UHGV virus genome: UHGV-0173177
Direction: 5' to 3' (one strand)
DNA length: 44,360 bases
Origin: a virus
The notes under the pieces: model-generated
Told to the model about the DNA's origin: nothing
The model's input: the letters and a program-made list of their open reading frames with translations, nothing else
The model's database searches: none
Program-made: the position numbers and the translations under genes
Shown here: positions 8,601-29,998 of the stretch, one piece after another
How the letters are laid out: each line of letters opens with the position of its first letter
How positions within the stretch are numbered: the stretch's first letter is position 1

Positions 8601-10012
8601 TGAGCGACTTATATTTCCCACGTAGCCTTAAGCCAGTGGTATCGAAAGGCTACTCAATGACCAGACGCAACAACGTCTGGAGCGTCGATTTAGCCGGTGG
8701 CGGGGTGCGTCAGGGGCGTGACACGTATTACGACGTGTTTCCGATAAGCGTAACCCTGATTACATCTGCACTAGGGCGGCAGGCGTTCCTGTCGTTCCTC
8801 GAAAAAGTCGATGGTGGTGCGTCAAGTTTCTGGATGGCGCACGACTTCGGCATGGGCATCGAGGATTATCAGGTAACAATCACGTCAACCATCGCCGAGT
8901 CCACAGAAGATGGGATTAACTGGACAATCACTTTCACAGCAACCGCCGAGAAATCCCCGTTCCAGAACCTCGAGAATCAGTGCCTGATTAACAATCTGCC
9001 AGATTTGTATGGTTGCTACGGGGATTGTCTGGGTAGTTTCCTGAAAATATACGCGAACTATGAGACTACGTTCCCGCGCATCTGGAGCGATGAAGGGCCC
9101 GCAGGATACCCGCCGATTAACCTTCTGGCGTCCGCCCTGGATAGCCGCATTGTGTACGACGGGCCGCAGGTTTATTACATCAACCGCAACGGCAATCTTG
9201 TGCAATCAGCCACTAATGAATGGCCCCTAACATTTATTGATGGTGTTGCCGTTGGGCGTGTGCCGCCAGAAAACGCTGCTACAAATTTACTCTATAAATC
9301 TGAGGATTATTCTATTCAAGACGGCGCCTGGAGTAGCGTAAGGGTTAGCGTAAACTACGGCGAAACTGAGGCGCCTACAGGAGAGAATACCGCAGGAAAA
9401 GTTACACCAACAACTGATAACAACACCCATACAATTATACAGACTATTACACCGGACGGTAATTCTGAATATGTGCTATCAGTATTTCTCAAGAGTAACG
9501 GCTACACCAACGCTATGGTTCAGATAGGCATCTTCGCAAGCCAAACAGCGCGCAACGTGGTACATGTAGATTTATCAAATGGGGTTATCACTTCGGCCTC
9601 CGATAGTAGCCGCTGTGGCATTCATATAATCGGCGACGGTTGGTACCGGGTGTGGACGAGAGTATCCACCATTGAATCCCCCACGACAATAAATGCTTCG
9701 GTATACGTAGCCGGTACCCGCGGTAATACTTCATTTGCGGGAGACGGTGTTAGTGCTATATCAGTTTTTGGCGCCCAAATGGAGAAATCTACCAATTCAT
9801 CGTCGTATGTTAAAACCGAAGAAAATTTAATTACACGCCCCGCGGCATCGGCAAAAGTAGCCATGAATGGTGCGACAAGCATCGACATTACATACTCTGA
9901 TGGTTCCACCGTAAACGTGCCCGCAGTAGATAACTACGCCACCATCCCCCAAGCGGATTCGGCGTGGGGTAGTAAATATATCACCCGTATTGATTTTAAT
10001 GTGGACGGTTAA
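8600..10012 (+). CDS. minor tail protein with lambda gpM-like N-terminal domain and long C-terminal extension
   Basis: N-terminal ~110 aa (…AFLSFLEKVDGGASSFWM…) recalls the gpM family; the remaining ~360 aa is an extension; TAATG coupling to the tape measure gene. Confidence 0.5.
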   Translation: MSDLYFPRSLKPVVSKGYSMTRRNNVWSVDLAGGGVRQGRDTYYDVFPISVTLITSALGRQAFLSFLEKVDGGASSFWMAHDFGMGIEDYQVTITSTIAESTEDGINWTITFTATAEKSPFQNLENQCLINNLPDLYGCYGDCLGSFLKIYANYETTFPRIWSDEGPAGYPPINLLASALDSRIVYDGPQVYYINRNGNLVQSATNEWPLTFIDGVAVGRVPPENAATNLLYKSEDYSIQDGAWSSVRVSVNYGETEAPTGENTAGKVTPTTDNNTHTIIQTITPDGNSEYVLSVFLKSNGYTNAMVQIGIFASQTARNVVHVDLSNGVITSASDSSRCGIHIIGDGWYRVWTRVSTIESPTTINASVYVAGTRGNTSFAGDGVSAISVFGAQMEKSTNSSSYVKTEENLITRPAASAKVAMNGATSIDITYSDGSTVNVPAVDNYATIPQADSAWGSKYITRIDFNVDG

Positions 10013-10015
10013 CTT

Positions 10016-10531
10016 ATGAGCCAGGAATCAGTAGAAGCAGCCTACCGCCGTAAGCTGGCGTCTAACCCGGACGGCGAGATGGATTACATCACGTTGCAAA
10101 TCAGCCATCCGTTGCTGTCAAAGACGTATTATCTTGTGCGCGGGCTACAGGAACTTACGGCAACACTGGAGACAGGCGAAACAATAACATTCGAGCCAAC
10201 CCCGATGGAGGCGTCGGGAGCGGCTAACAACAGTGATATGGACCAGACTACGACGTTTACTTTACCGGATATCCTCAATCAACTGGATGATGAGATGGAT
10301 AAAATCCCGATGAGCAATACTGAGTTGCCTAAGTTCGTCTTCCGTCGTTATGTCAGCACCGACCTGTCTTACCCGGCTGACGGCCCTGTCGTGTACGAGT
10401 TACAGGCCATCCACCAGGAGAAGGGCGAGTTCTCCGCGGATGTCGGTACACCTATGCTGAACCAACGAAGCACTGGTATACTGATGACACCTAAAGAGAT
10501 ACCGTTATTACGCGGCCTGTTGACAACATGA
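10016..10531 (+). CDS. minor tail protein (gpL-like position)
   Basis: 171-aa ORF between the gpM-like and gpK-like genes; call rests on gene order and size. Confidence 0.4.
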   Translation: MSQESVEAAYRRKLASNPDGEMDYITLQISHPLLSKTYYLVRGLQELTATLETGETITFEPTPMEASGAANNSDMDQTTTFTLPDILNQLDDEMDKIPMSNTELPKFVFRRYVSTDLSYPADGPVVYELQAIHQEKGEFSADVGTPMLNQRSTGILMTPKEIPLLRGLLTT

Positions 10532-10893
10532 ATATTAACGACTACACGGGCATACCTTACGACTTTCGCAAGCGCAATTGCTGGCATCATGTGCGAATTG
10601 TGCGGGCGGATGCCGGGTTAGAAACCCCGGCGTTCGACGTCACAAGCCCAACGGCAATTAATGAAGCGTTCGACGAAGGACATCGCAACACGAAGGGGCT
10701 TACGAAAATAGATAAGCCTGAAAACTTCTGTGCGGTGCTTATGGGGTATCGCCGTGGTGGTCGTATCGTGTGGCACGCAGGAGTTTACTTCGACGGGATG
10801 GTTAGCCATTGCGAGCTTGCTTCTCGTCAGGTACGGCTTGACAGGCTGGCGGACCTCAGAGACACGTACACGGAGATTGAATTTTGGCGATAA
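10528..10893 (+). CDS. tail assembly protein, gpK-like, with possible NlpC/P60-type Cys/His motifs
   Basis: 121 aa; Cys in RNCWHHVR and His in WHAGVY; ATGA coupling to the upstream gene. Confidence 0.45.
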   Translation: MNINDYTGIPYDFRKRNCWHHVRIVRADAGLETPAFDVTSPTAINEAFDEGHRNTKGLTKIDKPENFCAVLMGYRRGGRIVWHAGVYFDGMVSHCELASRQVRLDRLADLRDTYTEIEFWR

Positions 10894-13439
10894 TCCTGCA
10901 CTACACGCGAAACGCTGATGGCGCTTTCGACCGTACAAAACACGTCGGGATGCCGATGGAGTTTGTCGTTAACCGTATCCCGGACGGCGTGCCGGTGCGC
11001 GTCTACCTCGGCGAAATTGGTGATGATACCGACGTAACTGACGACTTCGACGCACTCAAAGACGAAGACGCCGTGTACCACATTATAGAGGGTGCTGGTA
11101 GCGGGGCGCTTGGTGCCGTTAGTAAGGTGTTTGGTTTTATCCTTAAGCCAATCGCTAAGTTGTTTGGTCTGAACATGTCCGCAAACGCCAACTATACGGC
11201 GACTAACAACCAGACAACATCACCAAATAACAGCCTCACAGACCGCTCAAACAAACCACGCCCTTACGAGCGCTCCTATGACATCTGCGGGACCGTGCAG
11301 ACGATCCCTAATGACCTGATGCGGACGTATAAGGCGTTCAACTCCACTGGTGCTTTGCTGGAATATTCGTACTATGACGCAGGGCGCGGACATCTGCATA
11401 TTGAGGCTGATGGCGTCACAGAGGGCGACACCCTGATAAGCGACATCACAGGTTCCTCTGTTGCCATATATGCACCGTATACGTCACTGAACAACACCAC
11501 ATCGCCGCAACTACAAATCGGCGACGTCATTGACCAGAAACTCTATGTGACATACTCCAACGACGACGTTGACGGTATTGTACTGAAAGCACCAAACGAC
11601 ATCGGGGCCAACCCAAGCTCCGGTGGAACCGCCAAACGTATTTCGACCACCGGCTACCTATATGACCCGTCGGGTGATTCTGCTTTTTCTGAGTTTCTTA
11701 GTGTTGGTGATGTCGCAGTGTTGAGCAATTTCGACGTTAAGGACGTCACTAACCTAAACGGCTCGTTTGAAGTTTTATACGTCGACGACTTTGAGGTTCG
11801 GTTGTACGTCGGGGATATAGGTAACTGGGGCAATCTTAATAACGGAGAGACTTACGCACTTACAGAGCGTTCTGACACGTTTATCGCCCCGAGCAACACC
11901 TATGACGTATCTCTTACGGACTGGTATTACATGGTGCGCGGAGAGGTTGACCGGGTGCTTGCTAACGTTGCCGGGCAGAACGGCCTCTACAAATACGACG
12001 GGGGCTATAACCGCACCAGTGTAACGGTGGAACTCCAGTACCAGATGATTGACTCCCAACGCAACCCTTTGAGCGACATTTACACGGTACAGGCTACAAT
12101 TACAGGCAACAGTACGGATTACGTCGGTACGTCTATCTACGGGCAGTTGCCGACCGCGTCTCGTTTCCGCGCCCGCATGCGCCGTATAACTAATTTCGAC
12201 AAGGACTACGACGGTACAGTAAGCGACGAGATAACGTTCATCAACCTGTACGGTCAGTCACTGGACACTACCCCGCATTACGGCAACCGAACTACAGTAC
12301 ATTGCGCCCGTAAACAGACACCACGCGCCGCCAGTATCGATAACCCTGAACTGCGCATGATTGCTACAGAGATGTGCTATAAATACCTCGGCAATGGGGT
12401 ATTCGATACAGTAATGTCGCCAAACACTCAGGCCGTGCAGTCGCTAATCAGACTGGCTCGCGACCCGGCGGTGGGCAATCTGGAACTGACAACGGCAAAC
12501 ATGGATAAGTTGCTTGCCGTGCAGGAAGAAATTGAGTCCTATTTTGGCAGTGAATTAGCCGGACAATTCTGCTACACGTTCGACGACTACGATACCACGA
12601 TGCAGGACATAGTTCAGACCATAGCGGAAGCCGTATTCTGTACTGCGTACCGCAAAGGTGCAGATATTATGCTGCGATTCGACCGTCCGGTTGCGGGGCC
12701 TGAAATGGTGTTCACCCACCGCAGTAAGACGACCGGTACGGAGAAATGGACACGCACGTTCAATGATTCGACAACCTACGATAGCTTGTCGTTCTCGTAC
12801 ATCGACCCGGATACTAACGTACAGGAAACGATTTATATCCCGGAAGAACTCGGCGCAAACACCGAGGAATACGAATCGAAGGGCGTACGTAACTATCAGC
12901 AGGCGTATTGGCTGGCGTGGCGGCGCTACCAACGCAACGCGTTAAGTAAAGTTGTCGTAGAGTTTGAAGCTACCGAAGAAGGTGCGCTCGCTACCCCAGG
13001 CGGCGTAATCAGCGTTGTTAAAGGTTCACGTATTGCGCCGCAGGATGGTTATGTTGTTGCCGTTAATGGGCTCACACTTACGCTGTCACAGCCAGTTACG
13101 TTCACACCCGGCGACGACCACTCAATCATCCTCAAGAAGCGCGATGGCTCCGTGCAGAGTATCTCGGTTATCAAAGGAAGCCACGACCGCGAGGTGATTA
13201 TGCTATCCGCGCCAGAGGAAGCGATTTATACCGGGAATAGCGCACTAAAAACTGAGTTTTCATTCGGCAACGAAGCAAGGCATAATGCACAGAGGATAGT
13301 TGTCTCTTCAATAGACCCTGGTGATGACCGCACGGTTAAGATTACAGGTTACAACTATGACGAAGGTTTCTACAAATACGACGGCGTCGCGCCTTTCGGT
13401 CGCGGTTTCTCCGACGGATTCAGCAACGGTTTTTATTAA
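10884..13439 (+). CDS. tail tip / central fibre host-specificity protein (gpJ-like)
   Basis: ~850-aa ORF after the M/L/K-like genes; track start is a TTG overlapping the upstream stop; first in-frame ATG is at 10950. Confidence 0.5.
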   Translation: MAIILHYTRNADGAFDRTKHVGMPMEFVVNRIPDGVPVRVYLGEIGDDTDVTDDFDALKDEDAVYHIIEGAGSGALGAVSKVFGFILKPIAKLFGLNMSANANYTATNNQTTSPNNSLTDRSNKPRPYERSYDICGTVQTIPNDLMRTYKAFNSTGALLEYSYYDAGRGHLHIEADGVTEGDTLISDITGSSVAIYAPYTSLNNTTSPQLQIGDVIDQKLYVTYSNDDVDGIVLKAPNDIGANPSSGGTAKRISTTGYLYDPSGDSAFSEFLSVGDVAVLSNFDVKDVTNLNGSFEVLYVDDFEVRLYVGDIGNWGNLNNGETYALTERSDTFIAPSNTYDVSLTDWYYMVRGEVDRVLANVAGQNGLYKYDGGYNRTSVTVELQYQMIDSQRNPLSDIYTVQATITGNSTDYVGTSIYGQLPTASRFRARMRRITNFDKDYDGTVSDEITFINLYGQSLDTTPHYGNRTTVHCARKQTPRAASIDNPELRMIATEMCYKYLGNGVFDTVMSPNTQAVQSLIRLARDPAVGNLELTTANMDKLLAVQEEIESYFGSELAGQFCYTFDDYDTTMQDIVQTIAEAVFCTAYRKGADIMLRFDRPVAGPEMVFTHRSKTTGTEKWTRTFNDSTTYDSLSFSYIDPDTNVQETIYIPEELGANTEEYESKGVRNYQQAYWLAWRRYQRNALSKVVVEFEATEEGALATPGGVISVVKGSRIAPQDGYVVAVNGLTLTLSQPVTFTPGDDHSIILKKRDGSVQSISVIKGSHDREVIMLSAPEEAIYTGNSALKTEFSFGNEARHNAQRIVVSSIDPGDDRTVKITGYNYDEGFYKYDGVAPFGRGFSDGFSNGFY

Positions 13440-13451: not shown

Positions 13452-15689
13452 ATGTCAAGCGGATGCGGTGACGTTTTAAGCCTGGCGGATTTACAAACCG
13501 CCAAGAAGCACCAGATTTTCGAAGCTGAGGTTATCACCGGTAAATCCGGCGGTGTTGCTACGGGTGCTGATATCGATTACGCGACAAATCAGGTTACTGG
13601 GCAGACACAGAAGACGTTACCTGCCGTGTTGCGTGATGCTGGTTTTTCTCCTGTATCGTGGGACTTTTCTACAGGCGGTACGTTAACAGTTAATGACCGC
13701 GACAAAGTGGTGTACGACCCTGTAAGTAAAACGTGGTACTCGTACGCGGGGACGTTACCAGTTACAGTTCCCGCGAGTTTTAATCCTGTAGGTAACGCTA
13801 ACTGGAGGCCACAGACCGATCCTAATTTACGTGGTGAGTTATCCATCATTGAAAACATAGCTGAGCTTATGTCTAAAACGCCAAACCCAGAACTCACGTA
13901 CACCGTGAAAGGCTATGCCCCAGGTACGACTTTCGGCGGGGGCATTTTCTACTGGGACGCCACCCTCCCTAAGTCACAACACAACGGCATCACTGTATTT
14001 AGTCCAACGGTGCCATGGGACGGAACCTACACCACTCTCGCGACCTTCTTAGCTGGCACAGGGGAAACCACCCCATCCGGCAGCGGATGCTGGGTCCGTA
14101 TGCAGAACAGCCGCGACATGCTCGTTTCTTGGGGCGGCGTTGACATCACAGGGACGAACGTTGCGGACGCCGCTGTAACCGCTGTTATTAAGTATGCTAA
14201 TACGGTCAAGCGTTCTGTTAGATTTGACTCTGGTGCAAATATTAAATGGGGCTTCTCTACCCTTGTCCAGCACTTTGACAAGTTCAATCGTAATGTGCAA
14301 TGTTCTGTTGTTCTGGAGAATATCAGCGGGATTAAGGTTTACGCGGAGAATGACGTTGAGTTCAACACTGACCACCCTACTTATGCGGAGCGTGTTGTCT
14401 TTCGCCTTAAAAACTGTAGCGAAGTAGAATTCTCTGGATTCAACTTCAACTCCAATTTCACCGACTATTCGACGACGACATCGGACACTACGTACAAGCC
14501 CCAAGAATGGTGGCAGGGCTTCACGGCCGAAGGTTGTTCTAATCTAGAAATCACTAAGCATCACGTTAATGCGTGCCAAGTATTTGTAGGGGCTGATTGT
14601 ACAAACTTAGCAGCAAACCTTCATAACATAGATATTCATGTTACAGATAACATGTTTAAGTATGTAACGAATTACTGCGTTATTTCCAGAAACATAAATC
14701 TGGTTGAATTCAGCCGCAACAAGGTTTCATTTAATGGGCGTAACTGGCACACATTCGGAGAGGCGTTCGCCCCTACGACAGGCTCCCTTAATATAATTGC
14801 CAAAGATAACATTTTTACTAACCAAATTGCGCAGCAGTCGTGTATTACGCCAACTCTGGGCGCTTCATCTGTAACTATTCAAGGTAATTATTGCCGTCGA
14901 CATTATGGTATTTTTGTCGAACTCGGTAGTTCGAGCAATGTGTTAATTTCAGGTAACACATCAATAAGTACTGGCGAACGTGCGGATACACCACACATTC
15001 TTATGGTTGGAGAGGTAGACGGCAACCCGGCGGGAGGTCTTTCAAACGTCAACATTACTGCAAACTATTTTGAGGGTGGTGGTTTTGCCGTTCAAGAATA
15101 CAATACCGGGTCTGCATTGCGCAGGGGTTTCAGTATAACTAACAACCATATGGTTGACTGCAAGTTACCCGCCATAACCAACCAATCTTACATTGGCGTG
15201 ACTGTTCGCGGTAACTATATGGAAGCACCCACTAACTTTCCTGATTTAGCTATCGCAGGACAGAGGCCTGTTATAGACGGTAACATGTTTGTTGGCGTTA
15301 GGGTGCGTGCAAGAGATTTAGGGTATAGCGTAATAGCTCCTAAGGTAACCAACAACGTATGGAGAGCAAACTCCATAGGGGAATCATATCCAGCACTTAT
15401 CGACTATACCGAATTCACCGCATTAGTGGCGGATGGCAACGACTCAACAGCAGCGGCGTACACGGACTTCATTGTCCACCCTTTAAATTGTAATAATGTA
15501 GGGTTCCGCAGAGTAGGCCATACTGAAGGGTTTACTGTCAGCCCTACTGCAAGATTTGGAGCCAAGCTCACTGATGCCAGAGTAGGTGATTTTGTAGCTA
15601 ATTCGTCCCCTACAGCATCTGGTGCTTATGCGTGGGTATGCGTTAGCCAATCAACAAAAGCGTTCAGTTCTATCGCATTGCGCGCATAA
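13452..15689 (+). CDS. tailspike / receptor-binding protein with probable beta-helix domain
   Basis: 745 aa, GAGGA RBS, last structural gene before a strong terminator; Asn/Gly/Thr/Val-rich repetitive middle region. Confidence 0.5.
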   Translation: MSSGCGDVLSLADLQTAKKHQIFEAEVITGKSGGVATGADIDYATNQVTGQTQKTLPAVLRDAGFSPVSWDFSTGGTLTVNDRDKVVYDPVSKTWYSYAGTLPVTVPASFNPVGNANWRPQTDPNLRGELSIIENIAELMSKTPNPELTYTVKGYAPGTTFGGGIFYWDATLPKSQHNGITVFSPTVPWDGTYTTLATFLAGTGETTPSGSGCWVRMQNSRDMLVSWGGVDITGTNVADAAVTAVIKYANTVKRSVRFDSGANIKWGFSTLVQHFDKFNRNVQCSVVLENISGIKVYAENDVEFNTDHPTYAERVVFRLKNCSEVEFSGFNFNSNFTDYSTTTSDTTYKPQEWWQGFTAEGCSNLEITKHHVNACQVFVGADCTNLAANLHNIDIHVTDNMFKYVTNYCVISRNINLVEFSRNKVSFNGRNWHTFGEAFAPTTGSLNIIAKDNIFTNQIAQQSCITPTLGASSVTIQGNYCRRHYGIFVELGSSSNVLISGNTSISTGERADTPHILMVGEVDGNPAGGLSNVNITANYFEGGGFAVQEYNTGSALRRGFSITNNHMVDCKLPAITNQSYIGVTVRGNYMEAPTNFPDLAIAGQRPVIDGNMFVGVRVRARDLGYSVIAPKVTNNVWRANSIGESYPALIDYTEFTALVADGNDSTAAAYTDFIVHPLNCNNVGFRRVGHTEGFTVSPTARFGAKLTDARVGDFVANSSPTASGAYAWVCVSQSTKAFSSIALRA

Positions 15690-16367: not shown

Positions 16368-17788
16368 TTCTTACCTCGTCTCTTCATGTAATTAAGCAAC
16401 TCTTCCTGTACCGATTTCTTCTCGTCCGTACGCGCGGCAACAACCTCATCCAGTGTGTCTTTAGCGACGATGTGATAGAGGAACACCGGGCGCTCGTGCC
16501 CCGCCTGCTTCTGGCGAACAGGGCCTATGCGCTCGACAACCTGCAAATAGTGTTCAAGGTTCCAGCCTTGTGAGATGAACGCCAGATGATGCCCGCCGTC
16601 CTGTAAATTCAAACCATGACCGGCTGACGCAGGGTGCACGCATAAAATCTCGATTTCACCACGGTTCCATGCTTCCATCTGCTTGTTCCCCTTAGCGCCT
16701 TTGGCGAACGCCTGTGCCTGTGGGAATCGCTTAAGGATACGCTCCAGTTCGTGTTTAAACTGATAGGCTACCAGCAACGGCTCACCCTGCAACTCCTCAA
16801 CAATCGACTCGAGCGCATCCAGTTTCGTGTCGTGCACTTTCTCCCAGTCTTTGGTCGCTTCGCCATCCGGCCCTGACACATACACGGCACCGGATGCAAT
16901 CTGCAAACATTTCGACGTCTTCGCCGCGGCGTTAGCCGCTTCGACTTCTCCGCTCTCCAGCTCAGCGAATAACTTCTCCTCCATATCGATGTACGCCTGA
17001 CGCGCTTTCTTCGGCAGGTCGATTTCAACCGGCACAATAATCGGCGCTTCACAACCGAACCACTCGGCAGGGTCGATGGTCAGGCTGATGTCTTTCATCT
17101 TCTGATGAATTTCATTATCTGCACCTGGTCGCGCATGATATTCACGCGCCATAGCCGACTTACCTTTCTGTACCGAGTTAAACCAGCGGTCTGTGAATGC
17201 CGTATACGAAGAGCCGAGGCGCTCGCCAGCGTCGATAAACCAGTTCTGACCCCACAAGTCTTTGAGGCCGTTTGGTGACGGTGTGCCAGTCAGGTTGATG
17301 AAACGCTTAACCTTTCCGAACGCAACCTTGCTGAGCGCCTTTGCCCGCTTGCTACCACCCGAACGGCTGCGGAACGATTTAAGCTTCGTGCTTTCATCGG
17401 CAACGATAACCGTAAAAGGCCAGTCGTCTTTGCCGTAGTAGTCAATTAGCCACTCGATAACTTCGTAGTTAGTGCACACCACGTTAGCATCTGACTCCAG
17501 CGCCGCGATGCGGCGCTTCTCCGAACCAGTTGCATCTACGACACGCAGACAAGGGAATTGCCATTTCTCTTGTTCAGCGGGCCACGTACCGGACGCAACA
17601 CGTAACGGGGCAAGGATTAACACGCGGTCCTCTTCCGTAAGCTGCCCGTTGCGGAACAGGCGGTTGAGCACCCACATAGTGGAGGAGGTTTTACCTCCCC
17701 CCATTCCGCACCAGATATTACAGCGCGGGTGTTGCAGCATGAACGAAGTCATGAGCTTCTGGTATTCGCGCCTTTGAAACTTACTCAT
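16364..17788 (-). CDS. SNF2/DEAD-like superfamily 2 helicase
   Basis: 474 aa; Walker A CGMGGGKTSS, DExx-type IVADESTKLK, C-terminal helicase-domain-like region. Confidence 0.7.
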   Translation of the reverse strand: MSKFQRREYQKLMTSFMLQHPRCNIWCGMGGGKTSSTMWVLNRLFRNGQLTEEDRVLILAPLRVASGTWPAEQEKWQFPCLRVVDATGSEKRRIAALESDANVVCTNYEVIEWLIDYYGKDDWPFTVIVADESTKLKSFRSRSGGSKRAKALSKVAFGKVKRFINLTGTPSPNGLKDLWGQNWFIDAGERLGSSYTAFTDRWFNSVQKGKSAMAREYHARPGADNEIHQKMKDISLTIDPAEWFGCEAPIIVPVEIDLPKKARQAYIDMEEKLFAELESGEVEAANAAAKTSKCLQIASGAVYVSGPDGEATKDWEKVHDTKLDALESIVEELQGEPLLVAYQFKHELERILKRFPQAQAFAKGAKGNKQMEAWNRGEIEILCVHPASAGHGLNLQDGGHHLAFISQGWNLEHYLQVVERIGPVRQKQAGHERPVFLYHIVAKDTLDEVVAARTDEKKSVQEELLNYMKRRGKK

Positions 17789-18734
17789 TTACCGCCCCCA
17801 TGAATGCCTTTATAAATTCAGCGGCTACTTGCGGGACGATGGCATTGCCATAACCGCGCAATCGTCCCACTCTGGCGGGTATCCCATTAGCCAGCGGGAA
17901 TGCGCCGGGTTCAACTGGCCTGAATTTTCCATCCCGGCATCCGAGCCAGTCAGTATCTGACCAGAAGCCGTGATGCGGATTGGTTGTGTTATTTTCAGAC
18001 CCTGCTCCGTCGAGTAGTCCAGCCTGTCGAATGTTCTGTCTTTTCCGTCCTTGCGAATAACTGTCTCTCCGCTCCCTCTGTAATCGTTCGCTGTTGGGGT
18101 CGGCCATGCCAAAAGGTATTGTGCGTGCGTCGCCAGATTGCAATTCGCATTCGGTCTGTTGAAGCGTTTTTCCGCGTAGGCTTGTGGGTCTTTCGCTCTG
18201 CTGTTGTTGTCGTCCGCAACCGCTGGCGTCGGCCAGGTTGTGCGCGCCGAAGAACAGTCTGTCGCGTTTGTGCGGTGCGCCGACGCTACAAGCTGGGAGT
18301 ACGGCAAACCCGACGGCGTAGTCTTCTCCTTCCAGGTGAGTTTGTAAATCGCACATCCACGATTTTGCAATTGCTGGCGCAACCTGCTCCCCAAAGAGGA
18401 CTGGAGGTCGGCACTCGCTGATAAGGTCGAGGAACACAGGTGCGAGGTGTCTCTGGTCGAACTGTCCGAGTTGCTTTCCCGCCGCGCTAAACGGTTGGCA
18501 AGGCGGGCTTCCCGTCCAGAGAGGCGCATCTTCCGGAACTCCCGCAAGTCTGAGCGCGAGAGGCCAGCCGCCGATACCAGCGAAAAAATGACACTGGGTG
18601 AACCCGTCAAGGTCTTCTGGCTTAACTTCGGTAATGCTTCTTTCATCTACAACTCCAAAAGGTATGTGACCCTGTTTTATCAACTCACGCAGCCACGCGG
18701 CTGCGCCTTTATCCCATTCATTGTAATAGTTCAT
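17781..18734 (-). CDS. DNA (cytosine-5)-methyltransferase
   Basis: Motif I FFAGIGG, motif IV SPPCQPFS, LFGEQV (ENV-like), RDRLFF, C-terminal GNAIVPQV, in the canonical order. Confidence 0.65.
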   Translation of the reverse strand: MNYYNEWDKGAAAWLRELIKQGHIPFGVVDERSITEVKPEDLDGFTQCHFFAGIGGWPLALRLAGVPEDAPLWTGSPPCQPFSAAGKQLGQFDQRHLAPVFLDLISECRPPVLFGEQVAPAIAKSWMCDLQTHLEGEDYAVGFAVLPACSVGAPHKRDRLFFGAHNLADASGCGRQQQQSERPTSLRGKTLQQTECELQSGDARTIPFGMADPNSERLQRERRDSYSQGRKRQNIRQAGLLDGAGSENNTTNPHHGFWSDTDWLGCRDGKFRPVEPGAFPLANGIPARVGRLRGYGNAIVPQVAAEFIKAFMGAVNE

Positions 18735-18952: not shown

Positions 18953-19237
18953 TTAACTATAATAGCTCGCTATTAGGTCGTCAACCTGTTTAAACGAACC
19001 AACGACAAAAACATTTGCACCACGTTTACGCATCCGCTCATGCTCGCGTAACTGGTGCGGGTCTGGCTTCGTGTTTTCGTCTTTTTTAACCTCGACGAAC
19101 CAGATGATGCCGCCGGGGAGAATTACCAGCAGGTCGGGAGCGCCGGAGCGCCCCTCGTAGGAAAGTTTACGAACGAGGCCCCCAATGGCCTCGAATCGCT
19201 CTTTTGCGTATTTCTGAATCTTGCCTTCCGGTGTCAT
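18953..19237 (-). CDS. VRR-NUC domain nuclease
   Basis: 94 aa; …GAPDLLVILPGGIIWFVEVKK… matches the PD-(D/E)XK core typical of VRR-NUC proteins. Confidence 0.6.
   Translation of the reverse strand: MTPEGKIQKYAKERFEAIGGLVRKLSYEGRSGAPDLLVILPGGIIWFVEVKKDENTKPDPHQLREHERMRKRGANVFVVGSFKQVDDLIASYYS
18956..18984 (-). promoter_or_regulatory. sigma70-like promoter (class 1: TTGACG-17-TATAGT) with AATAGCTCGCTATT palindrome in the spacer
   Basis: - strand reads TTGACG acctaatagcgagctat TATAGT; lies within the last codons of the VRR-NUC gene. Confidence 0.45.
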
Positions 19238-19396
19238 CAGTCCGTTACCTTACACAAAACGGCAACACCTAAAAACACGGCTACGATTACCATAATAAGG
19301 GTAAGCATTGTCATAATACACACCCCTCACGTTTCGTATGCTCAATCCCGCAGCGCGGACAGATTCGACAGTCTTCTTCGTAGAACCAGTAAATTT

Positions 19397-19528
19397 TCAT
19401 TCCAGCACCCACAGATAAATTGCGATGAGCATGCCTAATACGGCGACAGTCATGCCGTATTGACCCTCGTGACAGTAGACACCGGCGGCGAATCCCGCCA
19501 GTACCGCGATAATAAGTTTACTTAGCAT
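19397..19528 (-). CDS. small membrane peptide (43 aa); first of three overlapping tiny ORFs
   Basis: Hand-translated MLSKLIIAVLAGFAAGVYCHEGQYGMTVAVLGMLIAIYLWVLE with two hydrophobic segments; followed by 28-aa and 25-aa ORFs joined by ATGA overlaps. Confidence 0.25.
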   Translation of the reverse strand: MLSKLIIAVLAGFAAGVYCHEGQYGMTVAVLGMLIAIYLWVLE

Positions 19529-20213
19529 CTCTACATTCTCCTTCAGGCCACCTATTAGGGAAAGACGGTATATGTGAAACTTCTCTCGCCGCTTTTATTC
19601 TTTTAATGGCGGGACCTATCTCCGTAACCATTTCGATGAATGTAAACCGGTGTCCTCTGGTAAGATTACATGTCTGACAACAAGAAACGCAGTTAGATAC
19701 TATGTGTCCGCTTGTGTTATCAATGCGGTCTACCCCGACTTTTGTAGTGCTTCCGCAATAATGACACGGCTGTGATATCAGTTTAATAACACTTTCCAGT
19801 GTTAAATCGCACATAAGCCCTTTCCCTGAATCCGCTCTTTTGTACCCCAACAAAAGCGCGTACGCCCGCGTCCTTTGGTCCTTATTCACCAGTTCCCTGC
19901 GTTGCTTGTTGAGACACTCTCGGCAATCTTTCCGGATATGAGAGCCGTTGCTTTTATTTCCTTTCCGGAAGTTTTCCTCTGTTAAGGGTTTTATCTCTCC
20001 GCACTTTCTGCATTTAACAGGCTTCCCCGTGAAAACATACCAAGGGCTTTCTCGCCGTGATTTACCTTGTAATTTAAGTTTTTCGTCATACTTTTCCTTC
20101 CTGTTGGCGTTTACACACTCTTTACACCAGCTTTGCAGACCGAGGCGCGTTGACTTTGAAAAATACTCCGTAGTCGCGGGTTTATCTTCACCACATCTTG
20201 AACACTTTTTCAT
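19518..20213 (-). CDS. HNH homing-type endonuclease with zinc-ribbon repeats
   Basis: HNH core HYCGSTTKVGVDRIDNTSGHIVSNCVSCCQTCN plus two CxxC…C repeats; start trimmed to ATG 20213 with GGAG RBS; visibly AT-rich compared with neighbours. Confidence 0.6.
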   Translation of the reverse strand: MKKCSRCGEDKPATTEYFSKSTRLGLQSWCKECVNANRKEKYDEKLKLQGKSRRESPWYVFTGKPVKCRKCGEIKPLTEENFRKGNKSNGSHIRKDCRECLNKQRRELVNKDQRTRAYALLLGYKRADSGKGLMCDLTLESVIKLISQPCHYCGSTTKVGVDRIDNTSGHIVSNCVSCCQTCNLTRGHRFTFIEMVTEIGPAIKRIKAAREVSHIPSFPNRWPEGECRDAK

Positions 20214-20289
20214 TAGTAACTCCAAAAAAAATACCGACATAGTCATTATATCGGTATTTACATTTTCTACAGCGTATTTCCTAAATCTA

Positions 20290-22464
20290 CTACTTGGCGT
20301 ATCTGTACATTTCGCTGCCTTCTGCAACCAAAGGGAAGCCTTCTGCCCATTCCGGTAATTCGCACATCAACCGCTCAAGCTCTGCGACATTGTATTCCGG
20401 TAAATCTGGCGTCTCGCAGATAATCTCATCGTGTACGTGAAGTACAATCGGGTAGCCGTTTGCTTCTACGTTCAGCAGTGCATTAGCCAGCAAATCACGG
20501 CACAGCGCCTGAGTACAGTTTTCCACCAGTTTACCGGAGTAGGTGTACTGGAATCCCCACTGACGAGTTAACTGGTTTTCTCCCTGATACTTGATGCGCA
20601 CGTTAGTAGACACCTTTCCATCTTCGTCTGTCTCTTTCGACACGCTCAATCCGACGCCGGGGTAGGACATAACGCGGCCAGACGGCAACGTCATACGCAA
20701 CCACCAACCGGCGACCTTGTTGCCGTTGTTGTCCGTTTCTACGTTGCGCGAAAACTTAACACCCCGCGGCCCTGCAGTGAACTCTTTACCAGGATTGCGG
20801 ATGGCCGCCATAGCCGCGTCTTCAATATCGCGCCAGAATTGTACTATCGCCGGATTGGCCTCTCGGTACATGCGTTTCAGAGCGTCACATGTTCTCCATA
20901 CTTTCTTATCAAGTATATATGATGGTCGGTCATCCTTTTCACCAGGACGCGGTGGTCGCTTGGCTTCCTGAATACGCGCCCACTCGTAACCGCGTGCGGT
21001 AGCCGACCAAATATGGTCCGGGAAAGTTCCGTCTAAAGTGCGGGTCATATCGTTCAAATCAAGACCTAAGTTTTTAGCAAACGTGACGAAAGCACCGACA
21101 CCCCCCGCGTAGCCGAGGCCCAGAACCATTGCTTTGGCTATTTGTCTTTGGTCCTTTGTTACATCCTCATAAGCAACGTTGAACACCGTTGATGCGAGTT
21201 TCTTATACACATCAACCCCGTTTACAAATACTTCGATTAAATCGTCTTCGCCCGCCAGCCACGCAAGCCCACGGCCTTCAACGTTAGAGTAATCGGCGAC
21301 GACAAACTTGTGCCCAGCTTCCGGTATGATGCAGCTACGTACCGTCGATGCCGTTAGCTTGGCTACATCGAAACGGCGATGAGCGCGACCCTTAAGTAAC
21401 GCTGAAATTCCTTTATCCAGTTCATCATCGTGATAGTACCCGCGCGCCAGGTTCTGTGGCTGGAAGCCTTTACCTGCAAATCGTAACGTACGCTTTGCCC
21501 CGCCATACTGTATGCAACCACGGCGACGGTCGTCAGAAGAACGGCCCAACAGCAGTGGGTTATATTTAGTTGATGCAGTTGAAGCAGCCCCGAGGCGCAT
21601 TTCGATAATCGTACGCGCATCGTCCGGTAAATCATCATCTGCCAGCAGGTCATTCAGCGTCGACTTCTGCGCGTTGTGGATACGGTGCGCCGGTGCGAGT
21701 TCGCGAAGAATCGGAAGGAAGTCTTTACCAGTAAGAGAGCCGCCGTATTTGCGCTGGGCTTCTTCCTGTAACTGTGCCTTGTGCTTCTCCACGGCCTCGA
21801 TAGCGGCTTCCGCCAGTGCGACGTCAACCTTAAACCCGCGGTCGTTGATTAACTGGTCAAGTTCCAGTACACGGTCTTCGAACTCGGAGTTACCCCACCG
21901 CGGCAGCTTATGGAAGACTTCACGCATCGCAGTGATGTCGCTCACGGCGTACTTGATGAACAGCGCCCACTCGTCCGGGTGTGTTTCTGCGGTGTAGCGG
22001 CGGATTTTGTAATTCTTCGGTGTCGGTTTAGAGAAACGCTGAATCAGCGCCTTGCCGCGTTTATCTTTTGCATTGTCAGCATACACGCCAAGCACTTCAC
22101 ACAGCGCATCAAGTGAACCCGGCAGCGCGTGACGAAACGCCCAAATCATCGTATCAATGGTGTTGCTTACGGGAATATCAAAGCCCCAGCAGTGTTTCAT
22201 GATGAGCCTGTCGAACATTGAGCCGTTGTGCCACACCATCTTAATACGACTGTTCGGCTTAACCAGGCGGCGCAGTGCGCGGTGCAAATCACCCGGCATG
22301 TCGCTGCCGTCGGTGCAATCCCATACCCGCACAGGCTCGTCGTCAAAAGCATATGTGCAGATAAGCACTTCGGTAGTCGGGTGTTCGGCGTAAGCGTAGG
22401 AGCCGACTTTCTTTAAATCGATGCCGCTGTAGGTTTCAAAGTCTAGATAGAGTAATTCTGGCAT
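20290..22464 (-). CDS. family A DNA polymerase with 3'-5' exonuclease domain
   Basis: ~724 aa; N-terminal exonuclease motif LYLDFETYS; large polymerase-domain-like C-terminal region; track TTG start at 22494 lies in the upstream terminator, so start trimmed to ATG 22464. Confidence 0.8.
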   Translation of the reverse strand: MPELLYLDFETYSGIDLKKVGSYAYAEHPTTEVLICTYAFDDEPVRVWDCTDGSDMPGDLHRALRRLVKPNSRIKMVWHNGSMFDRLIMKHCWGFDIPVSNTIDTMIWAFRHALPGSLDALCEVLGVYADNAKDKRGKALIQRFSKPTPKNYKIRRYTAETHPDEWALFIKYAVSDITAMREVFHKLPRWGNSEFEDRVLELDQLINDRGFKVDVALAEAAIEAVEKHKAQLQEEAQRKYGGSLTGKDFLPILRELAPAHRIHNAQKSTLNDLLADDDLPDDARTIIEMRLGAASTASTKYNPLLLGRSSDDRRRGCIQYGGAKRTLRFAGKGFQPQNLARGYYHDDELDKGISALLKGRAHRRFDVAKLTASTVRSCIIPEAGHKFVVADYSNVEGRGLAWLAGEDDLIEVFVNGVDVYKKLASTVFNVAYEDVTKDQRQIAKAMVLGLGYAGGVGAFVTFAKNLGLDLNDMTRTLDGTFPDHIWSATARGYEWARIQEAKRPPRPGEKDDRPSYILDKKVWRTCDALKRMYREANPAIVQFWRDIEDAAMAAIRNPGKEFTAGPRGVKFSRNVETDNNGNKVAGWWLRMTLPSGRVMSYPGVGLSVSKETDEDGKVSTNVRIKYQGENQLTRQWGFQYTYSGKLVENCTQALCRDLLANALLNVEANGYPIVLHVHDEIICETPDLPEYNVAELERLMCELPEWAEGFPLVAEGSEMYRYAK

Positions 22465-22480
22465 GGTATTTTGACCCTTA

Positions 22481-22510
22481 GTAAAAAGGCCCAATGAAGG
22501 GCCTTAGTTA
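22481..22510 (-). terminator. intrinsic terminator (copy 3 of the reiterated module) after the SSB-like gene
   Basis: - strand reads AACTAAGGCCC-ttcatt-GGGCCTTTTTACT, sharing the AACTAAGGCCC…GGGCCTTTTT core with the terminators at 3191 and 15694. Confidence 0.6.
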
Positions 22511-25838: not shown

Positions 25839-28079
25839 CTATTCCAAATCCTCTTCTGTCACTACCAGCATTTCATTCGGTTCGTATATTGTCTTCGGTC
25901 TTAGTCTATCCCCTATTCTTTCAGGTATACGATACGTTCTCGGTACTACTTCGCCATTAGCATCACAGCCTAGCATTAGTTCACCATCTTTCAGCATTTT
26001 ATCAAGATGGGTGTTAGTCACAGAAAAGTCACCGGAACGGGCCACTATCTGCTGCTGAGTAAAACCGCGACCTGTGTCATCTGACTGTTGCAGGTCTTCC
26101 AGTGCCGAAAGTATCGACTCCTTCCTTACTTCATCCCTGCCGCGTTTAACTTCTTCCTTTACTTTTTGTTTACCTTCGTTAGTTAACCCTTCTTCCCGCT
26201 CCTTCTCCTCGTCAGTTTTGAACGGCTCGAAGCCCCACGGCATCAGAACAAGCGCCTTGTGTGGTTCCGGCAGGTCGAGGTTTACGATTGTGCCGTATTC
26301 CTCTGTGCTGCCCAGGAACTCAACAGCACGGTACTCTTTCGGCGGTGGTGCTTCACGGAACTGTACAGACTCCAACACCATGCCAACCGTTTTCTGTTGA
26401 GGGCCGTGCTTAAATTTTGAGTGGTATACGTTTATCTGACGGTCGGTTGCGCGTTCAATTGTCAGTTCCACGTCGACCCCAGCATACAACGCCCCGCTGC
26501 CACGGGCTTTCTTTCCACCTTTCGGTGTATGGTGGACAACACCCACCGCGGCTTTGGTTGCGTCGCGTACTTCTTTCAGGATGGCGATAACCTTACCCAT
26601 GCCGATTGCCGTTGATGAACTGTTCTCGTCGAACTTATCAATCGTCAGGGCCAGTGTCTGGTTGAGAGTATCGAACGCGACCATGCCGATGGGTTCGCCA
26701 CCCGCAGTTTCTCGCATTAGCTTAATCAGGCTTTTCAGTTTGCCAACTTCGCCCATATCGATGACATGTACATAATATTTACCTTCCTCGCCGTATTTAG
26801 CCGCGAGTGCATCAATACGGGTGCGTGTGGCAGCACCGCCCTCGCCGTCAATATAGAAATGGTGGCAACGCTGTGTATCAGCGCCGGCAAACCGGTACCC
26901 GGCGGCGCTCAGGTACATCATCCCCAGCGTATAGAAGGATTTGTACGTGCCGGATTCCCCGACGATGTCCCAGATGCAATCCGAGGGCATGTACCCTTCA
27001 ACGACGAAATCAGCCTTTACCGGTTCAGGTAACTCGTCCTCCTCTGAGCCTTCGTCATCTTCCAGGTCGTCCAGGCTGCATGAAACGGACTCTCGCGCAC
27101 CCCAACCGATAGCCTCTGCTACTTCACTGAATGGCAGCCCGGTCGCATCGCACGCATACTTCCACACCTCTTTCGGTGACATGCCTTCGGTTGCCGTAAT
27201 GTCGGTGTCGTGAATCATGGTTACGTTTGGCGCGGCGTAACCCTCTCGCGGAAAGCACAGCAGGAAATCATCCGGGCGTGGCGTCGGGTCGCTGTAGTTT
27301 TCTGCGTGTTCTGGTGTGGCAGGCATTTTAAGGCCGCGGGGTGTCATAATACCGCCATACTCGAATGCCAGTGCTTCAAACGCATCGGTAAACGCAGTGC
27401 GCAGTTCTTCCGGTATCTGGTAATCCGATGCGCTGCTAACGTCAACGGCGGGGATGCCTTCCAGCAGTTCTTCCGGGTCAATCAGGTCGTTGCGGCGCGA
27501 CCAAATAACGGTAGAGCCAACCGGCGGCAGGTACATCGGCTGCGACAGAGTGAACCCGCTGCGGTCAGCGCCCATGCCTTTGAAGAAGTGCTCGAGCAAT
27601 CCGTGGCGAACGCGGATGATGTCGCCACCTTCGACCGGGCGACCAAGCGGCATAACGACGCGAAAGCGCGGTGACCCATCGGTATGTGATGCCGTGGTAT
27701 AGAGGCACATGGCCAGGCGGCTGCGCTTAACCAGGTGCACAGCTTCCTGATACTCTTCCGGCGTTGCACTGTCGAAGTCCAGGTAGGCCAGTGATGATTT
27801 GCTTACAGAGGCGTCGCAGCGATAGAAGAAGCCTTTACGCGCTTGCTTAAAGTCCCCGGTTTCCTGGTCTTTTACGGTGCTGTGTGTTGAGTCGCACGCG
27901 GCTGTGATATAGCCGGGCGCGGTCTTAGGGTTAACCCCATCACGAACAGCATCGAGCGGCCGGATTAACTCTTTCAGGTCGTCCAGTGTTGCCGTGTGTG
28001 TGGTTCTGACGTTTATATCCTTTTTCTCTGCCCGCGCGTTGCGACGAGACCACGAGTAGGATAAAATTACATCGGACAT
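25839..28079 (-). CDS. primase-helicase (N-terminal primase-like region, C-terminal RecA-fold helicase domain)
   Basis: 746 aa; Walker A GESGTYKS within a RecA-like region; Walker B-like VVHHT; large N-terminal domain typical of phage/plasmid primases. Confidence 0.65.
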   Translation of the reverse strand: MSDVILSYSWSRRNARAEKKDINVRTTHTATLDDLKELIRPLDAVRDGVNPKTAPGYITAACDSTHSTVKDQETGDFKQARKGFFYRCDASVSKSSLAYLDFDSATPEEYQEAVHLVKRSRLAMCLYTTASHTDGSPRFRVVMPLGRPVEGGDIIRVRHGLLEHFFKGMGADRSGFTLSQPMYLPPVGSTVIWSRRNDLIDPEELLEGIPAVDVSSASDYQIPEELRTAFTDAFEALAFEYGGIMTPRGLKMPATPEHAENYSDPTPRPDDFLLCFPREGYAAPNVTMIHDTDITATEGMSPKEVWKYACDATGLPFSEVAEAIGWGARESVSCSLDDLEDDEGSEEDELPEPVKADFVVEGYMPSDCIWDIVGESGTYKSFYTLGMMYLSAAGYRFAGADTQRCHHFYIDGEGGAATRTRIDALAAKYGEEGKYYVHVIDMGEVGKLKSLIKLMRETAGGEPIGMVAFDTLNQTLALTIDKFDENSSSTAIGMGKVIAILKEVRDATKAAVGVVHHTPKGGKKARGSGALYAGVDVELTIERATDRQINVYHSKFKHGPQQKTVGMVLESVQFREAPPPKEYRAVEFLGSTEEYGTIVNLDLPEPHKALVLMPWGFEPFKTDEEKEREEGLTNEGKQKVKEEVKRGRDEVRKESILSALEDLQQSDDTGRGFTQQQIVARSGDFSVTNTHLDKMLKDGELMLGCDANGEVVPRTYRIPERIGDRLRPKTIYEPNEMLVVTEEDLE

Positions 28080-28137
28080 GTTGTATTTCCTTCAGCAAGT
28101 AATTTGGCCTCGGCGTTCACCGCGTCGGGGCTTTCTT

Positions 28138-28371
28138 TTATTCCAGGTCTTCTAAAGTAGCGGTCATTCCGCGAACTTCAGCAACGGCGCTATATTTCCC
28201 GCCAACATTTTTCACGACACCAGATTTAACCAGCACCTTCAACGACCCTTCAATAATGGCTGAACTATAGTACTTAAAATAACTACGGCGCAAGTCAATA
28301 ACGCTACACGACCCTTTTTTACGTGTTAACGAAACGACTGCTGTAAATACGCGTGACTGAAACTCGGTCAT
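28138..28371 (-). CDS. hypothetical protein (77 aa)
   Basis: ORF with ATGA coupling to the upstream HTH gene. Confidence 0.4.
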   Translation of the reverse strand: MTEFQSRVFTAVVSLTRKKGSCSVIDLRRSYFKYYSSAIIEGSLKVLVKSGVVKNVGGKYSAVAEVRGMTATLEDLE

Positions 28372-28538
28372 TTCACGTTCTCCTTAATCCATGCTTCCAC
28401 TTTCTCCGGGTCAAACGTACCTGGCTGACGACGGCCCATAATGCGGATGCAGCAATCCGGGAACTTCCCGCTCTTTAACCAGTTATTCAGCGTGCGACGG
28501 GTAACCCCGATACGCTCAGCTACCTCATTCTGTGTCAT
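28368..28538 (-). CDS. small helix-turn-helix DNA-binding protein (AlpA/excisionase-like)
   Basis: MTQNEVAERIGVTRRTLNNWLKSGKFP is an AlpA-type HTH; start trimmed to ATG 28538 with GAGGG RBS (track start 28571 is a TTG). Confidence 0.55.
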   Translation of the reverse strand: MTQNEVAERIGVTRRTLNNWLKSGKFPDCCIRIMGRRQPGTFDPEKVEAWIKENVK

Positions 28539-28570
28539 TCTCAAACCCTCATTATTAGTTAACGAAACCA

Positions 28571-28599
28571 AGTATACATTGCGAATAATGGGAAATCAA
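28571..28599 (-). promoter_or_regulatory. sigma70-like promoter (TTGATT-17-TATACT) for the leftward HTH/primase operon
   Basis: - strand reads TTGATT tcccattattcgcaatg TATACT, about 35 nt upstream of ATG 28538. Confidence 0.5.
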
Positions 28600-28978
28600 A
28601 CATAATCGCACCTATTGACATTATGAAAATCTTCGTTTAAGGTGCTTCTATATCTTAGTTACTTTGATTCCTGTTCACCTTGTAAAACCGCTTAAAACGC
28701 AGCTGCGCGCAGCGCAAGCAAAGTGTTAAGCGAAAGTTTACTGAACACGAGAATTATCGTAACTTTCCTTCCTAAGTATCTCCGGTTGCCCTGGGCAAGC
28801 TCTATTCACATCGGCAGCATATCTCTTAAGTATCTGATTTTCTTAATGTGCCGTAGATTCGCAACCGTAAAAATGTAACGATTATTGGGCAGGCTTAGGG
28901 CCTGCCCTTTAGTTACCAAGTAATAAGAATAAAGGCACAACCTTCCCAGAAGAATCACAACGGCAACGTAACTATCTC

Positions 28979-29007
28979 TTGCACGCCCCAACATAATAGG
29001 ATACTAT
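28979..29007 (+). promoter_or_regulatory. sigma70-like promoter (class 2: TTGCAC-17-TACTAT) with AATAGGATACTATT palindrome over the -10
   Basis: TTGCAC gccccaacataatagga TACTAT tcactt, followed by leader ACGAGAcagAGGAG and ATG 29042. Confidence 0.55.
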
Positions 29008-29041
29008 TCACTTATCGAAACGAGACAGAGGAGTGAGGGTT

Positions 29042-29233
29042 ATGTTTAAGAAGGGTCAGTTGGTTAAATGCGCCGACGGTAAACACGGTGTGATTGAATT
29101 AAAATCCGCTTTATTTCCGGGAGAGTACCTAGTTACTGTGCAAAAGGTGAGAGGAGTAAATTCGGCGGCATACGTAGCGGAAGAGAATTTAAAACTCATC
29201 GGCAACAATTTTAAATTCAAAGAGGTGAAGTGA
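29042..29233 (+). CDS. hypothetical early protein (63 aa)
   Basis: ATG 29042 with GAGGAG/GAGGG RBS (track start 29033 is a GTG); first gene after the promoter at 28979. Confidence 0.5.
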   Translation: MFKKGQLVKCADGKHGVIELKSALFPGEYLVTVQKVRGVNSAAYVAEENLKLIGNNFKFKEVK

Positions 29234-29442
29234 TGGAAGAATTAATTTGCGTGAAAAGTAAATTAACGGAGTTTAAGCCGGGGCGTTTATACAGCAGTTA
29301 CCCAACACCTGATTACGATTATGTTATTGATGAAACAGGAGGCGAATGGGTAGTTGACCAGTTCGGAGATGATGAGTTCGGTATATTTGATGGTGGACTG
29401 AGAGCCTCATTCACAACGGCATCGGATAAAGAGGCGAAGTGA
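29230..29442 (+). CDS. hypothetical early protein (70 aa)
   Basis: ATGA coupling to the upstream gene; acidic small protein. Confidence 0.5.
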   Translation: MMEELICVKSKLTEFKPGRLYSSYPTPDYDYVIDETGGEWVVDQFGDDEFGIFDGGLRASFTTASDKEAK

Positions 29443-29645
29443 TGCAAGAATTATTTGAAGAACTGAAACATCATGAACTAGAAGAAGTGCATTTCATAAT
29501 TGGCCATTACAAAGTCACTTTATTAGACGGTACAACCATTTCTTCAGGGGCAAGTGACGATTTGTTGAAATTTTTACGTTTACTACGAACGGCATCGAAT
29601 CATGATGCGAGTGTCGACGACTCTGAGGGAGGTTGCCGTGAATAA
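29439..29645 (+). CDS. hypothetical early protein (68 aa)
   Basis: ATGA coupling to the upstream gene. Confidence 0.5.
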   Translation: MMQELFEELKHHELEEVHFIIGHYKVTLLDGTTISSGASDDLLKFLRLLRTASNHDASVDDSEGGCRE

Positions 29646-29995: not shown

Positions 29996-29998
29996 GAT

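Follow-up and report, generated by a model that had tools for sequence, protein, structure and literature searches.

A PacI-like nuclease cassette, probably of the homing type, inserted between the DNA polymerase gene and conserved small genes of a Kagunavirus phage

The window analysed here, a 44,360-nucleotide virus genome (UHGV-0173177), carries a cassette of about 770 bp (19518-20289). Its insertion point is precisely the 11-nt overlap that joined the stop of the DNA polymerase gene to the start of the next gene. A repeat at the end of the cassette restores the ribosome-binding site (RBS) and start codon of the downstream gene, and neither neighbour is damaged. The cassette encodes, on the minus strand (19518-20213), a 231-aa PacI-like beta-beta-alpha-metal (His-Me finger) endonuclease and has the character of a free-standing insertion of the homing-endonuclease type. 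We consider it probable that the region brings together two unrelated things: this mobile homing-type nuclease cassette, and a set of resident small genes behind it (19237-19528).

A 2-kb query around the locus retrieved 419 phage records at 80-95% identity, every one of them from the Guernseyvirinae (either E. coli Kagunavirus or Salmonella Jerseyvirus). The closest are Bas72, Bas73, Bas74 and KMB35, at 92-94% identity, and the window is a Kagunavirus phage. The gene order, all on the minus strand, is family A DNA polymerase (pol), nuclease, three small ORFs (o43, o29 and o25), VRR-NUC, a 63-aa ORF, a cytosine methylase and a SNF2 helicase; the initial annotation, made from the sequence alone, had correctly placed the nuclease and the small ORFs between the polymerase and VRR-NUC. 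The polymerase gene (20290-22494; Pfam DNA_pol_A, 5.6e-22) was delimited with junction alignments against Golestan, a relative that lacks the nuclease gene. The insertion is bordered on the left by the last codons of this gene (...EMYRYAK), with a TAG at 20290-20292 and another at 20287-20289. The conserved right neighbour, the VRR-NUC nuclease gene (18953-19237), matches PHROG 93 at 2.2e-33 and gives a weak Pfam VRR_NUC match (0.0023).

The nuclease gene is rare among close relatives. It is covered by 4 of the 419 related GenBank records, and a protein-level search of all phage records returned the same four carriers at 98-99% identity, annotated under assorted names. One of 50 close IMG/VR loci (L012) also has the gene, and an additional copy lies in a 44-kb record labelled as a plasmid that is actually a phage genome; no copy of the cassette was found among 5,426 complete E. 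coli genomes. The nuclease ORF is intact in all seven carriers.

In the cassette-less genomes pol is joined directly to o43 by an overlap of 10-11 nt. In Golestan, for example, pol ends in ...RYAK-TAA, and these last codons contain the start codon of o43, which gives an overlap of 11 nt. The window holds this overlap twice, at the end of pol and at the end of the nuclease ORF. The stretch at 20290-20300 (ACGCCAAGTAG) is a copy of the old pol/o43 overlap in which the o43 ATG has become ACG, a change that is silent in pol (TACGCCAAGTAGTAG). The copy at the end of the nuclease ORF (GAATGTAGAGATGCTAAGTAA) provides the GGAG and the ATG of o43. More broadly, the last ~27 nt of the nuclease ORF together with its stop (19518-19547, minus strand) repeat the pol 3' end and o43 start in direct orientation and degenerate form, with about 20 of 24 positions matching the pol end in a hand alignment; the duplicated stretch measures ~24-33 nt. 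A longer repeat of the pol 3' end, of ~45 nt, was rejected, as the tails of homologues show ...HIPSFPNR(Y/W) to be native to the nuclease subfamily. None of 48 cassette-less loci retains a deletion scar or left-over spacer, so the polarity is one of gain here and not of loss elsewhere. The alignment with relatives therefore shows an insertion, and the earlier proposal of a free-standing, laterally acquired endonuclease gene agrees with its absence from ~99% of close relatives, its lower GC content and its own RBS.

As the initial annotation had noted, the GC content of the nuclease gene lies visibly below that of its flanks. It is 44.3% (43.5% at third codon positions, GC3), against 51.1% for the window, 52.4% for pol and 51.2% for VRR-NUC, with GC3 of ~57% in both neighbours. 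The gene falls in the lowest 4.5% of 696-nt windows (z = -1.9), a moderate deviation that is not unique, since several other stretches of the window are equally low. The predicted GGAG RBS is likewise present, at 20223-20220, 6 nt upstream of the start ATG at 20213.

Between the polymerase and this start codon lies a 76-nt AT-rich spacer (20214-20289, minus strand; GC 28.9%) that arrived with the nuclease gene and is absent from cassette-less relatives. Its central feature is a terminator-like hairpin (20229-20259) of 13 pairs, only 3 of them G-C, with a 5-nt loop, followed directly by U8. The hairpin was recovered by a terminator scan, has an RNA folding z of -2.46, and has the pattern of an intrinsic (Rho-independent) terminator, that is, a stable hairpin running directly into a U-run. 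Equivalent hairpins precede homologues of 60-64% identity, where the stem sequences differ and the pairing is kept. Across 7 sequences from ~4-5 lineages, 4 of 11 pairs are compensatory and 96% of cells are paired, compared with 42-56% in slid controls; these figures come from a small, hand-guided alignment of trimmed hairpins with pairs counted on the stated structure, as automatic MAFFT/RNAalifold alignment put the hairpins out of register. Homing endonuclease genes of T4 carry expression signals of their own, including hairpins close to the start.

The spacer also holds a -35-like CTGTAG (20272-20267), a 16-nt gap and a perfect -10 TATAAT (20250-20245), the last located in the inner 5' arm and loop of the hairpin. 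A TTGTAG-N16/17-TATAAT-like arrangement recurs in 5 diverged cassettes, with TATTGT replacing TATAAT in two lineages; the -35-like hexamer of the window is weak by comparison (CTGTAG versus TTGTAG-like elsewhere). A promoter scan did not call the TATAAT site in the spacer, so the site is best treated as a candidate promoter. Taken from sequence and predicted structure, the hairpin may be a terminator for read-through transcripts with a promoter embedded in it. A resemblance to the Rfam sRNA STnc240 at 20222-20289 (minus strand) scored 29.8 bits, below the 55-bit gathering threshold, and was dismissed as terminator-like similarity only.

The nuclease had been described as having a canonical HNH core, and this description did not hold. 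Pfam and NCBIfam searches assigned the nuclease to no family; they found no HNH family for the window protein at E <= 0.1, and none of 50 homologues matches an HNH profile at E <= 0.01. The family is nonetheless large: an exhaustive protein search returned 16,369 cluster representatives (50% identity clusters) at E <= 1e-3, compared with only 6 relatives from a word-indexed search. PHROG 1035, labelled 'endonuclease VII', matches the nuclease at 3e-30. We rejected identity with T4 endonuclease VII, given that Pfam Endonuclease_7 gives no match at E <= 0.1 and that the closest structure is PacI. The label of PHROG 1035, and the same name in the annotations of Bas72-74, is best regarded as a naming convenience.

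The catalytic core (19650-19766, minus strand) reads C150-x2-C153 ... G160-x-D162-R163-I-D-N166 ... G169-H170 ... N174 ... C179-x2-C182-N183, as defined by conserved columns and by a HMMER alignment to PacI residues 89-135. C150, C153, G160, D162, N174, C179, C182 and N183 are invariant in the 50-member alignment, and Y152, R163, N166 and G169 nearly so. Arg163 occupies the position of the general-base His of HNH enzymes, at the end of beta-strand 1. HMMER pairs window residues D162, R163, H170 and N183 with D92, R93, Y100 and N113 of PacI, Y100 being the only Tyr in the aligned PacI loop. By sequence similarity alone the relationship is not significant (phmmer E 0.11). The AlphaFold2 model has a mean pLDDT of 90.3, falling below 50 at residues 225-231, and in structure comparison the predicted fold is closest to PacI, a beta-beta-alpha-metal fold with Asn and Asp as putative metal ligands.

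PacI is a His-Me finger enzyme without the His; it relies on a Tyr in the loop that connects the two strands, and an Asp and an Asn bind the metal (PMC5714182, PMC4081073). By analogy, Asp162 and Asn183 probably hold the metal in the window protein, and His170, which lies in the inter-strand loop and aligns with the catalytic Tyr of PacI, would activate the water. Among 174 motif instances in 155 family representatives, Arg follows Asp in 173. At the loop position 90 instances have Tyr and 81 have His, so that 171 of 174 carry one or the other. As its loop residue is His170 and not Tyr, the window protein belongs to the His variant; it is a His variant of the PacI-type core with an extra zinc ribbon.

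The replacement of the canonical general-base His by Arg163 and the missing Pfam HNH match could be taken to mean that this His-Me finger has lost catalysis and does no more than bind DNA, and some His-Me groups without the His are indeed inactive (PMC5714182). We think this very unlikely: PacI, an active restriction enzyme relying on its loop Tyr, shows the same Asp-Arg arrangement, the loop position is almost always Tyr or His across the family motifs, and Asp162 and Asn183, the putative metal ligands, never vary in the alignment. A role as a packaging-type HNH protein was rejected because the gene sits in the replication module and is missing from nearly all relatives.

The zinc-ribbon repeats named in the initial annotation are present as two CxxC...CxxC units. 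The first, N-terminal unit (C4, C7, C30 and C33; 20115-20204, minus strand) is recognized from sequence, with weak Stc1 and Lar-like PHROG matches, and its predicted strands have pLDDT above 87. The second (C68, C71, C97 and C100; 19914-20012, minus strand) is at least 90% conserved in 50 homologues. Two Cys4 site patterns, C68/C71/C97/C100 and C150/C153/C179/C182, are kept at 90-100%, as sequence patterns only, and may bind zinc.

The closest known entities are PacI and the 'PacI-like' endonucleases of Skunavirus (PMC12724721). With PacI (PDB 3ldy/3m7k; His-Me finger group 20 of Jablonska et al. 2017) the window protein has in common a G-x-D-R...G-(Y/H)...N...C-x2-C-N core, Cys4 zinc sites and the lack of a His at the end of strand 1. 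It differs in having His170 where PacI has the catalytic Tyr100, in its length of 231 aa with an extra N-terminal zinc ribbon (PacI has 142 aa), and in being encoded sporadically by phages, in a setting of the homing type, whereas PacI is a bacterial restriction enzyme. The lactococcal Skunavirus proteins are free-standing HNH endonucleases whose assignment to the PacI-like class was based on profile similarity, and which were read as homing endonucleases (PMC12724721). Compared by description and not by direct homology, they are likewise phage-encoded, free-standing and variably present, but they belong to another host and phage group and lie in the morphogenesis module, while the window gene lies behind polA. 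Two enzymes of lactococcal phages are reported to reduce plating of a phage lacking them, and the single PacI-like enzyme that was tested is neither of these (PMC12724721).

Two further comparisons concern better-known phage enzymes. T4-like and T5-like homing endonuclease genes (Seg, Mob, F-Tfl, and I-HmuI-type HNH_3) are similarly intergenic insertions beside conserved replication genes with sporadic distribution; the window gene differs in catalytic family and has no HNH_3 match, and true HNH_3 genes occupy the same two slots in L034, L051 and CP088689. T4 endonuclease VII shares the His-Me finger superfamily and CxxC zinc motifs with the window nuclease and differs from it in the structural and Pfam results given above.

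Homologues of the nuclease sit in comparable positions in other phages. A homologue of 50% identity lies between pol and VRR-NUC in Dhillonvirus (26 of 158 records), and four metagenomic phage contigs have homologues of 60-64% identity immediately behind polA. At the identical insertion point, L034 has an unrelated canonical HNH_3+AP2 endonuclease. The neighbouring slot, between o29 and VRR-NUC, is filled by HNH_3 endonucleases in L051, L055 and CP088689, and L058 keeps an HNH_3 endonuclease remnant. The same region is thus used by PacI-like, HNH_3+AP2 and HNH_3 genes, which makes the pol/VRR-NUC interval a hot spot for at least three endonuclease lineages. Slot reuse and sporadic presence are the picture expected of free-standing homing endonuclease genes, with cleavage and homing as the putative activities of this nuclease.

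Sequence comparison between carriers indicates strong constraint on the nuclease protein. Between the window allele and that of Bas74, KMB35 and L012 there are 33 synonymous and only 3-4 nonsynonymous changes (pN/pS 0.02-0.03), and the copies in those three are identical to one another at synonymous sites. Between Bas74 and KMB35 the cassette is 99-100% identical and the flanks immediately outside it are 88-93% identical; the genomes are mosaic elsewhere too. With mosaicism found throughout these phages, ordinary recombination could account for the occurrence of identical cassettes in unlike backgrounds. Polymorphisms in the flanks fail to separate cassette-plus from cassette-minus genomes, and no target or immunity site can therefore be deduced from them. 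The locus overall is a case of ordinary phage mosaicism with some instructive details, and current understanding is not overturned.

On another reading, compatible with the low pN/pS, with the intact ORF in 7 of 7 carriers and with homologues beside pol and VRR-NUC in several genera, the nuclease is not selfish and serves as a useful accessory of the replication/recombination module, cutting competing phage or host DNA or working with the polymerase and VRR-NUC, and that was kept in some lineages and lost in most. We regard this as unlikely. The gene occurs in only ~1% of Guernseyvirinae and 16% of Dhillonvirus records, the pol/o43 overlap is seamless and free of any scar in the 48 cassette-less loci, the junction duplication indicates insertion and not loss elsewhere, and unrelated homing-type HNH_3 genes sit at the same point.

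The small ORFs behind the nuclease have a different history. The largest, o43 (19397-19528, minus strand), overlaps the nuclease stop by 11 nt and encodes a 43-aa micro-protein in which two hydrophobic segments flank a conserved CHEGQYG turn (GRAVY 1.43; phrog_10404, 7.7e-31). It is followed by o29 (19311-19400, minus strand), which encodes a 29-aa, Cys-rich hydrophilic micro-protein (phrog_38225, 2.9e-23); both PHROG families are of unknown function. The o29 residues C14 and C27 are present in all 51 loci compared, C17 in 50, H21 in 49 and C11 in 45, and these conserved Cys and His residues suggest a small zinc knuckle. The third ORF, o25 (19237-19314, minus strand), is a 25-codon hydrophobic ORF (GRAVY 2.16) in the second variable slot, between o29 and VRR-NUC, with which it shares 1 nt at the VRR-NUC start (19237). 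ATGA overlaps join o43 to o29 and o29 to o25. Of the coupled chain of 43, 28 and 25 codons described in the initial annotation, the coupling and the first and last lengths were borne out, and the second ORF has 29 codons, not 28; the description of the peptides as hydrophobic or Cys-rich is also accurate. On hydropathy only, a membrane character of o43 and o25 is plausible.

The first two of these ORFs are widespread. We found o43 in 224 phage records and o29 in 445, the latter spanning Kagunavirus and Jerseyvirus. Because almost all of these phages lack the nuclease, the suggestion that the micro-proteins are linked to the endonuclease was not sustained; o25 occurs in only four GenBank phages and 2 IMG/VR loci, none of them with the nuclease.

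A skeptical reading would treat the small ORFs as no genes at all, the 290 nt being a spacer that relays ribosomes from the polymerase or the nuclease to VRR-NUC. The ORFs are very short, their stop and start signals overlap, the slot beside VRR-NUC varies freely in length, and the 4 differences seen in o25 are all nonsynonymous (among 3 sequences only). For o43 and o29, selection speaks against this: pN/pS is 0.24 in frame for o43 (40 unique sequences; 1.0-1.9 in other frames) and 0.17 for o29 (45 unique sequences; 1.4-2.1 in other frames), comparable to 0.29 for pol and 0.19 for VRR-NUC. There are no internal stops in the 40 unique o43 or 45 unique o29 sequences, and o29 is kept across two genera. 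A pure spacer is accordingly quite improbable. Judged on coding signals, o43 and o29 appear to be real conserved coding genes, independent of the nuclease.

The status of o25 is different, and it may not be a functional gene. It had no match in the PHROG search. The o29/VRR-NUC slot measures 0, 68, 74, 125, 146, 188, ~335 or 487 nt among relatives, and o25 aligns partially, at the nucleotide level, to the 146-nt variant. It is a rare filler of this second variable slot and may have arisen by deletion from a 50-aa two-segment membrane ORF (phrog_14925) that other relatives have there.

The probable arrangement of a mobile cassette beside resident genes can be put together as follows. The cassette comprises the terminator-like hairpin, whose loop holds a -10 box, an RBS of its own, the 231-aa nuclease and the degenerate copy of the pol end. 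During co-infection the nuclease would cut the pol/o43 junction region of related cassette-less phages, and repair templated by the cassette-bearing genome would copy the cassette in. Transcripts reading through from pol would end at the hairpin, and those from the embedded promoter, which lack the 5' arm, would allow the nuclease and downstream genes to be expressed. The two-segment hydrophobic micro-protein o43 and the Cys/His-rich, probably zinc-binding peptide o29 would be long-standing Guernseyvirinae genes, translated by coupling within the replication operon.

A bolder version can be offered only tentatively. The cassette might be a self-insulated mobile unit, in which the hairpin stops pol transcripts and the -10 promoter in its loop restarts transcription of the nuclease and the downstream operon. 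Its enzyme might represent a very large phage family (more than 16,000 clusters at 50% identity) for which no curated profile exists and in which the PacI Tyr and a relocated His are interchangeable at one loop position. In the same proposal, o29 and o43 might form a zinc-peptide and membrane-peptide pair in Guernseyvirinae replication.

Four GenBank phages already hold the nuclease gene; what the window adds is a divergent allele, the first combination of the nuclease with o25, and some detail of the cassette architecture. For the enzyme family, the result means that Kagunavirus and Dhillonvirus genes labelled 'endonuclease VII', 'restriction endonuclease' or 'HNH' are PacI-like nucleases missed by Pfam HNH models, and that the near 50/50 split between Tyr and His at the position of the PacI catalytic Tyr constitutes a natural experiment on the active site. 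Kagunaviruses serve as small synthetic-biology chassis. In their genomes the pol/VRR-NUC interval offers two insertion-tolerant slots that have received at least three endonuclease lineages, and o43 and o29 within it are to be treated as real conserved genes, not as spacer.

In one relative (locus L034), a gene for an HNH_3+AP2 endonuclease (765-1280 of that locus) lies between the polymerase gene and o43, a conserved micro-ORF of 43 codons. Its insertion point is identical to that of the PacI-like nuclease gene in the window, the two genes are unrelated, and the overlap duplication in L034 is only ~10 nt. The interval between o29, the conserved micro-ORF of 29 codons, and the VRR-NUC gene is a second variable slot among relatives. 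Canonical homing-type endonucleases of the HNH_3 type are encoded there in three loci, L051 (999-1505), L055 and L093 (2400-2897), and L058 carries a truncated HNH_3 endonuclease remnant (1361-1492). In other relatives the same slot holds a 50-aa membrane ORF with two segments (phrog_14925), a 64-aa ORF (phrog_25645), or a hydrophobic ORF of 23 aa.

Locus L093 corresponds to positions 8620-12312 of CP088689.1, a circular 'plasmid' of 44,086 bp from an E. coli blood isolate, which is a Kagunavirus-like phage genome. Both of its slots, pol/o43 and o29/VRR-NUC, are occupied by endonuclease genes. Among the PLSDB gene-table rows listed, there is no gene entry for its PacI-like gene.

In the window, the minus-strand gene for a cytosine methylase (17781-18734) contains about 300 nt (17941-18240) for which the relatives Bas74 and KMB35 have no counterpart, and a 273-aa ORF (17825-18646) overlaps this gene in a different frame. 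An internal stretch of polA (21015-21305) shares only 62-67% identity with Bas74 and KMB35, compared with 83-91% for the adjoining stretches; an intein-containing polymerase is annotated in some Jerseyvirus records. GC content as low as that of the nuclease gene also occurs at ~2500-4500, 14000-15500 and 27500-30000.

The entire spacer between polA and the nuclease gene is spanned by a sub-threshold match (20222-20289, minus strand) to the Rfam enterobacterial sRNA STnc240, scoring 29.8 bits against a gathering score of 55. A sigma-70-like sequence, TTGACG-17-TATAGT (10/12; 18956-18984, minus strand), lies within the VRR-NUC 3' end, with a 63-aa ORF downstream.

The o29 homologue in KMB35 (L002, 2028-2126; 32 aa) carries the label 'HNH endonuclease'. 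This is probably a mis-annotation, which its CxxC motif probably explains.
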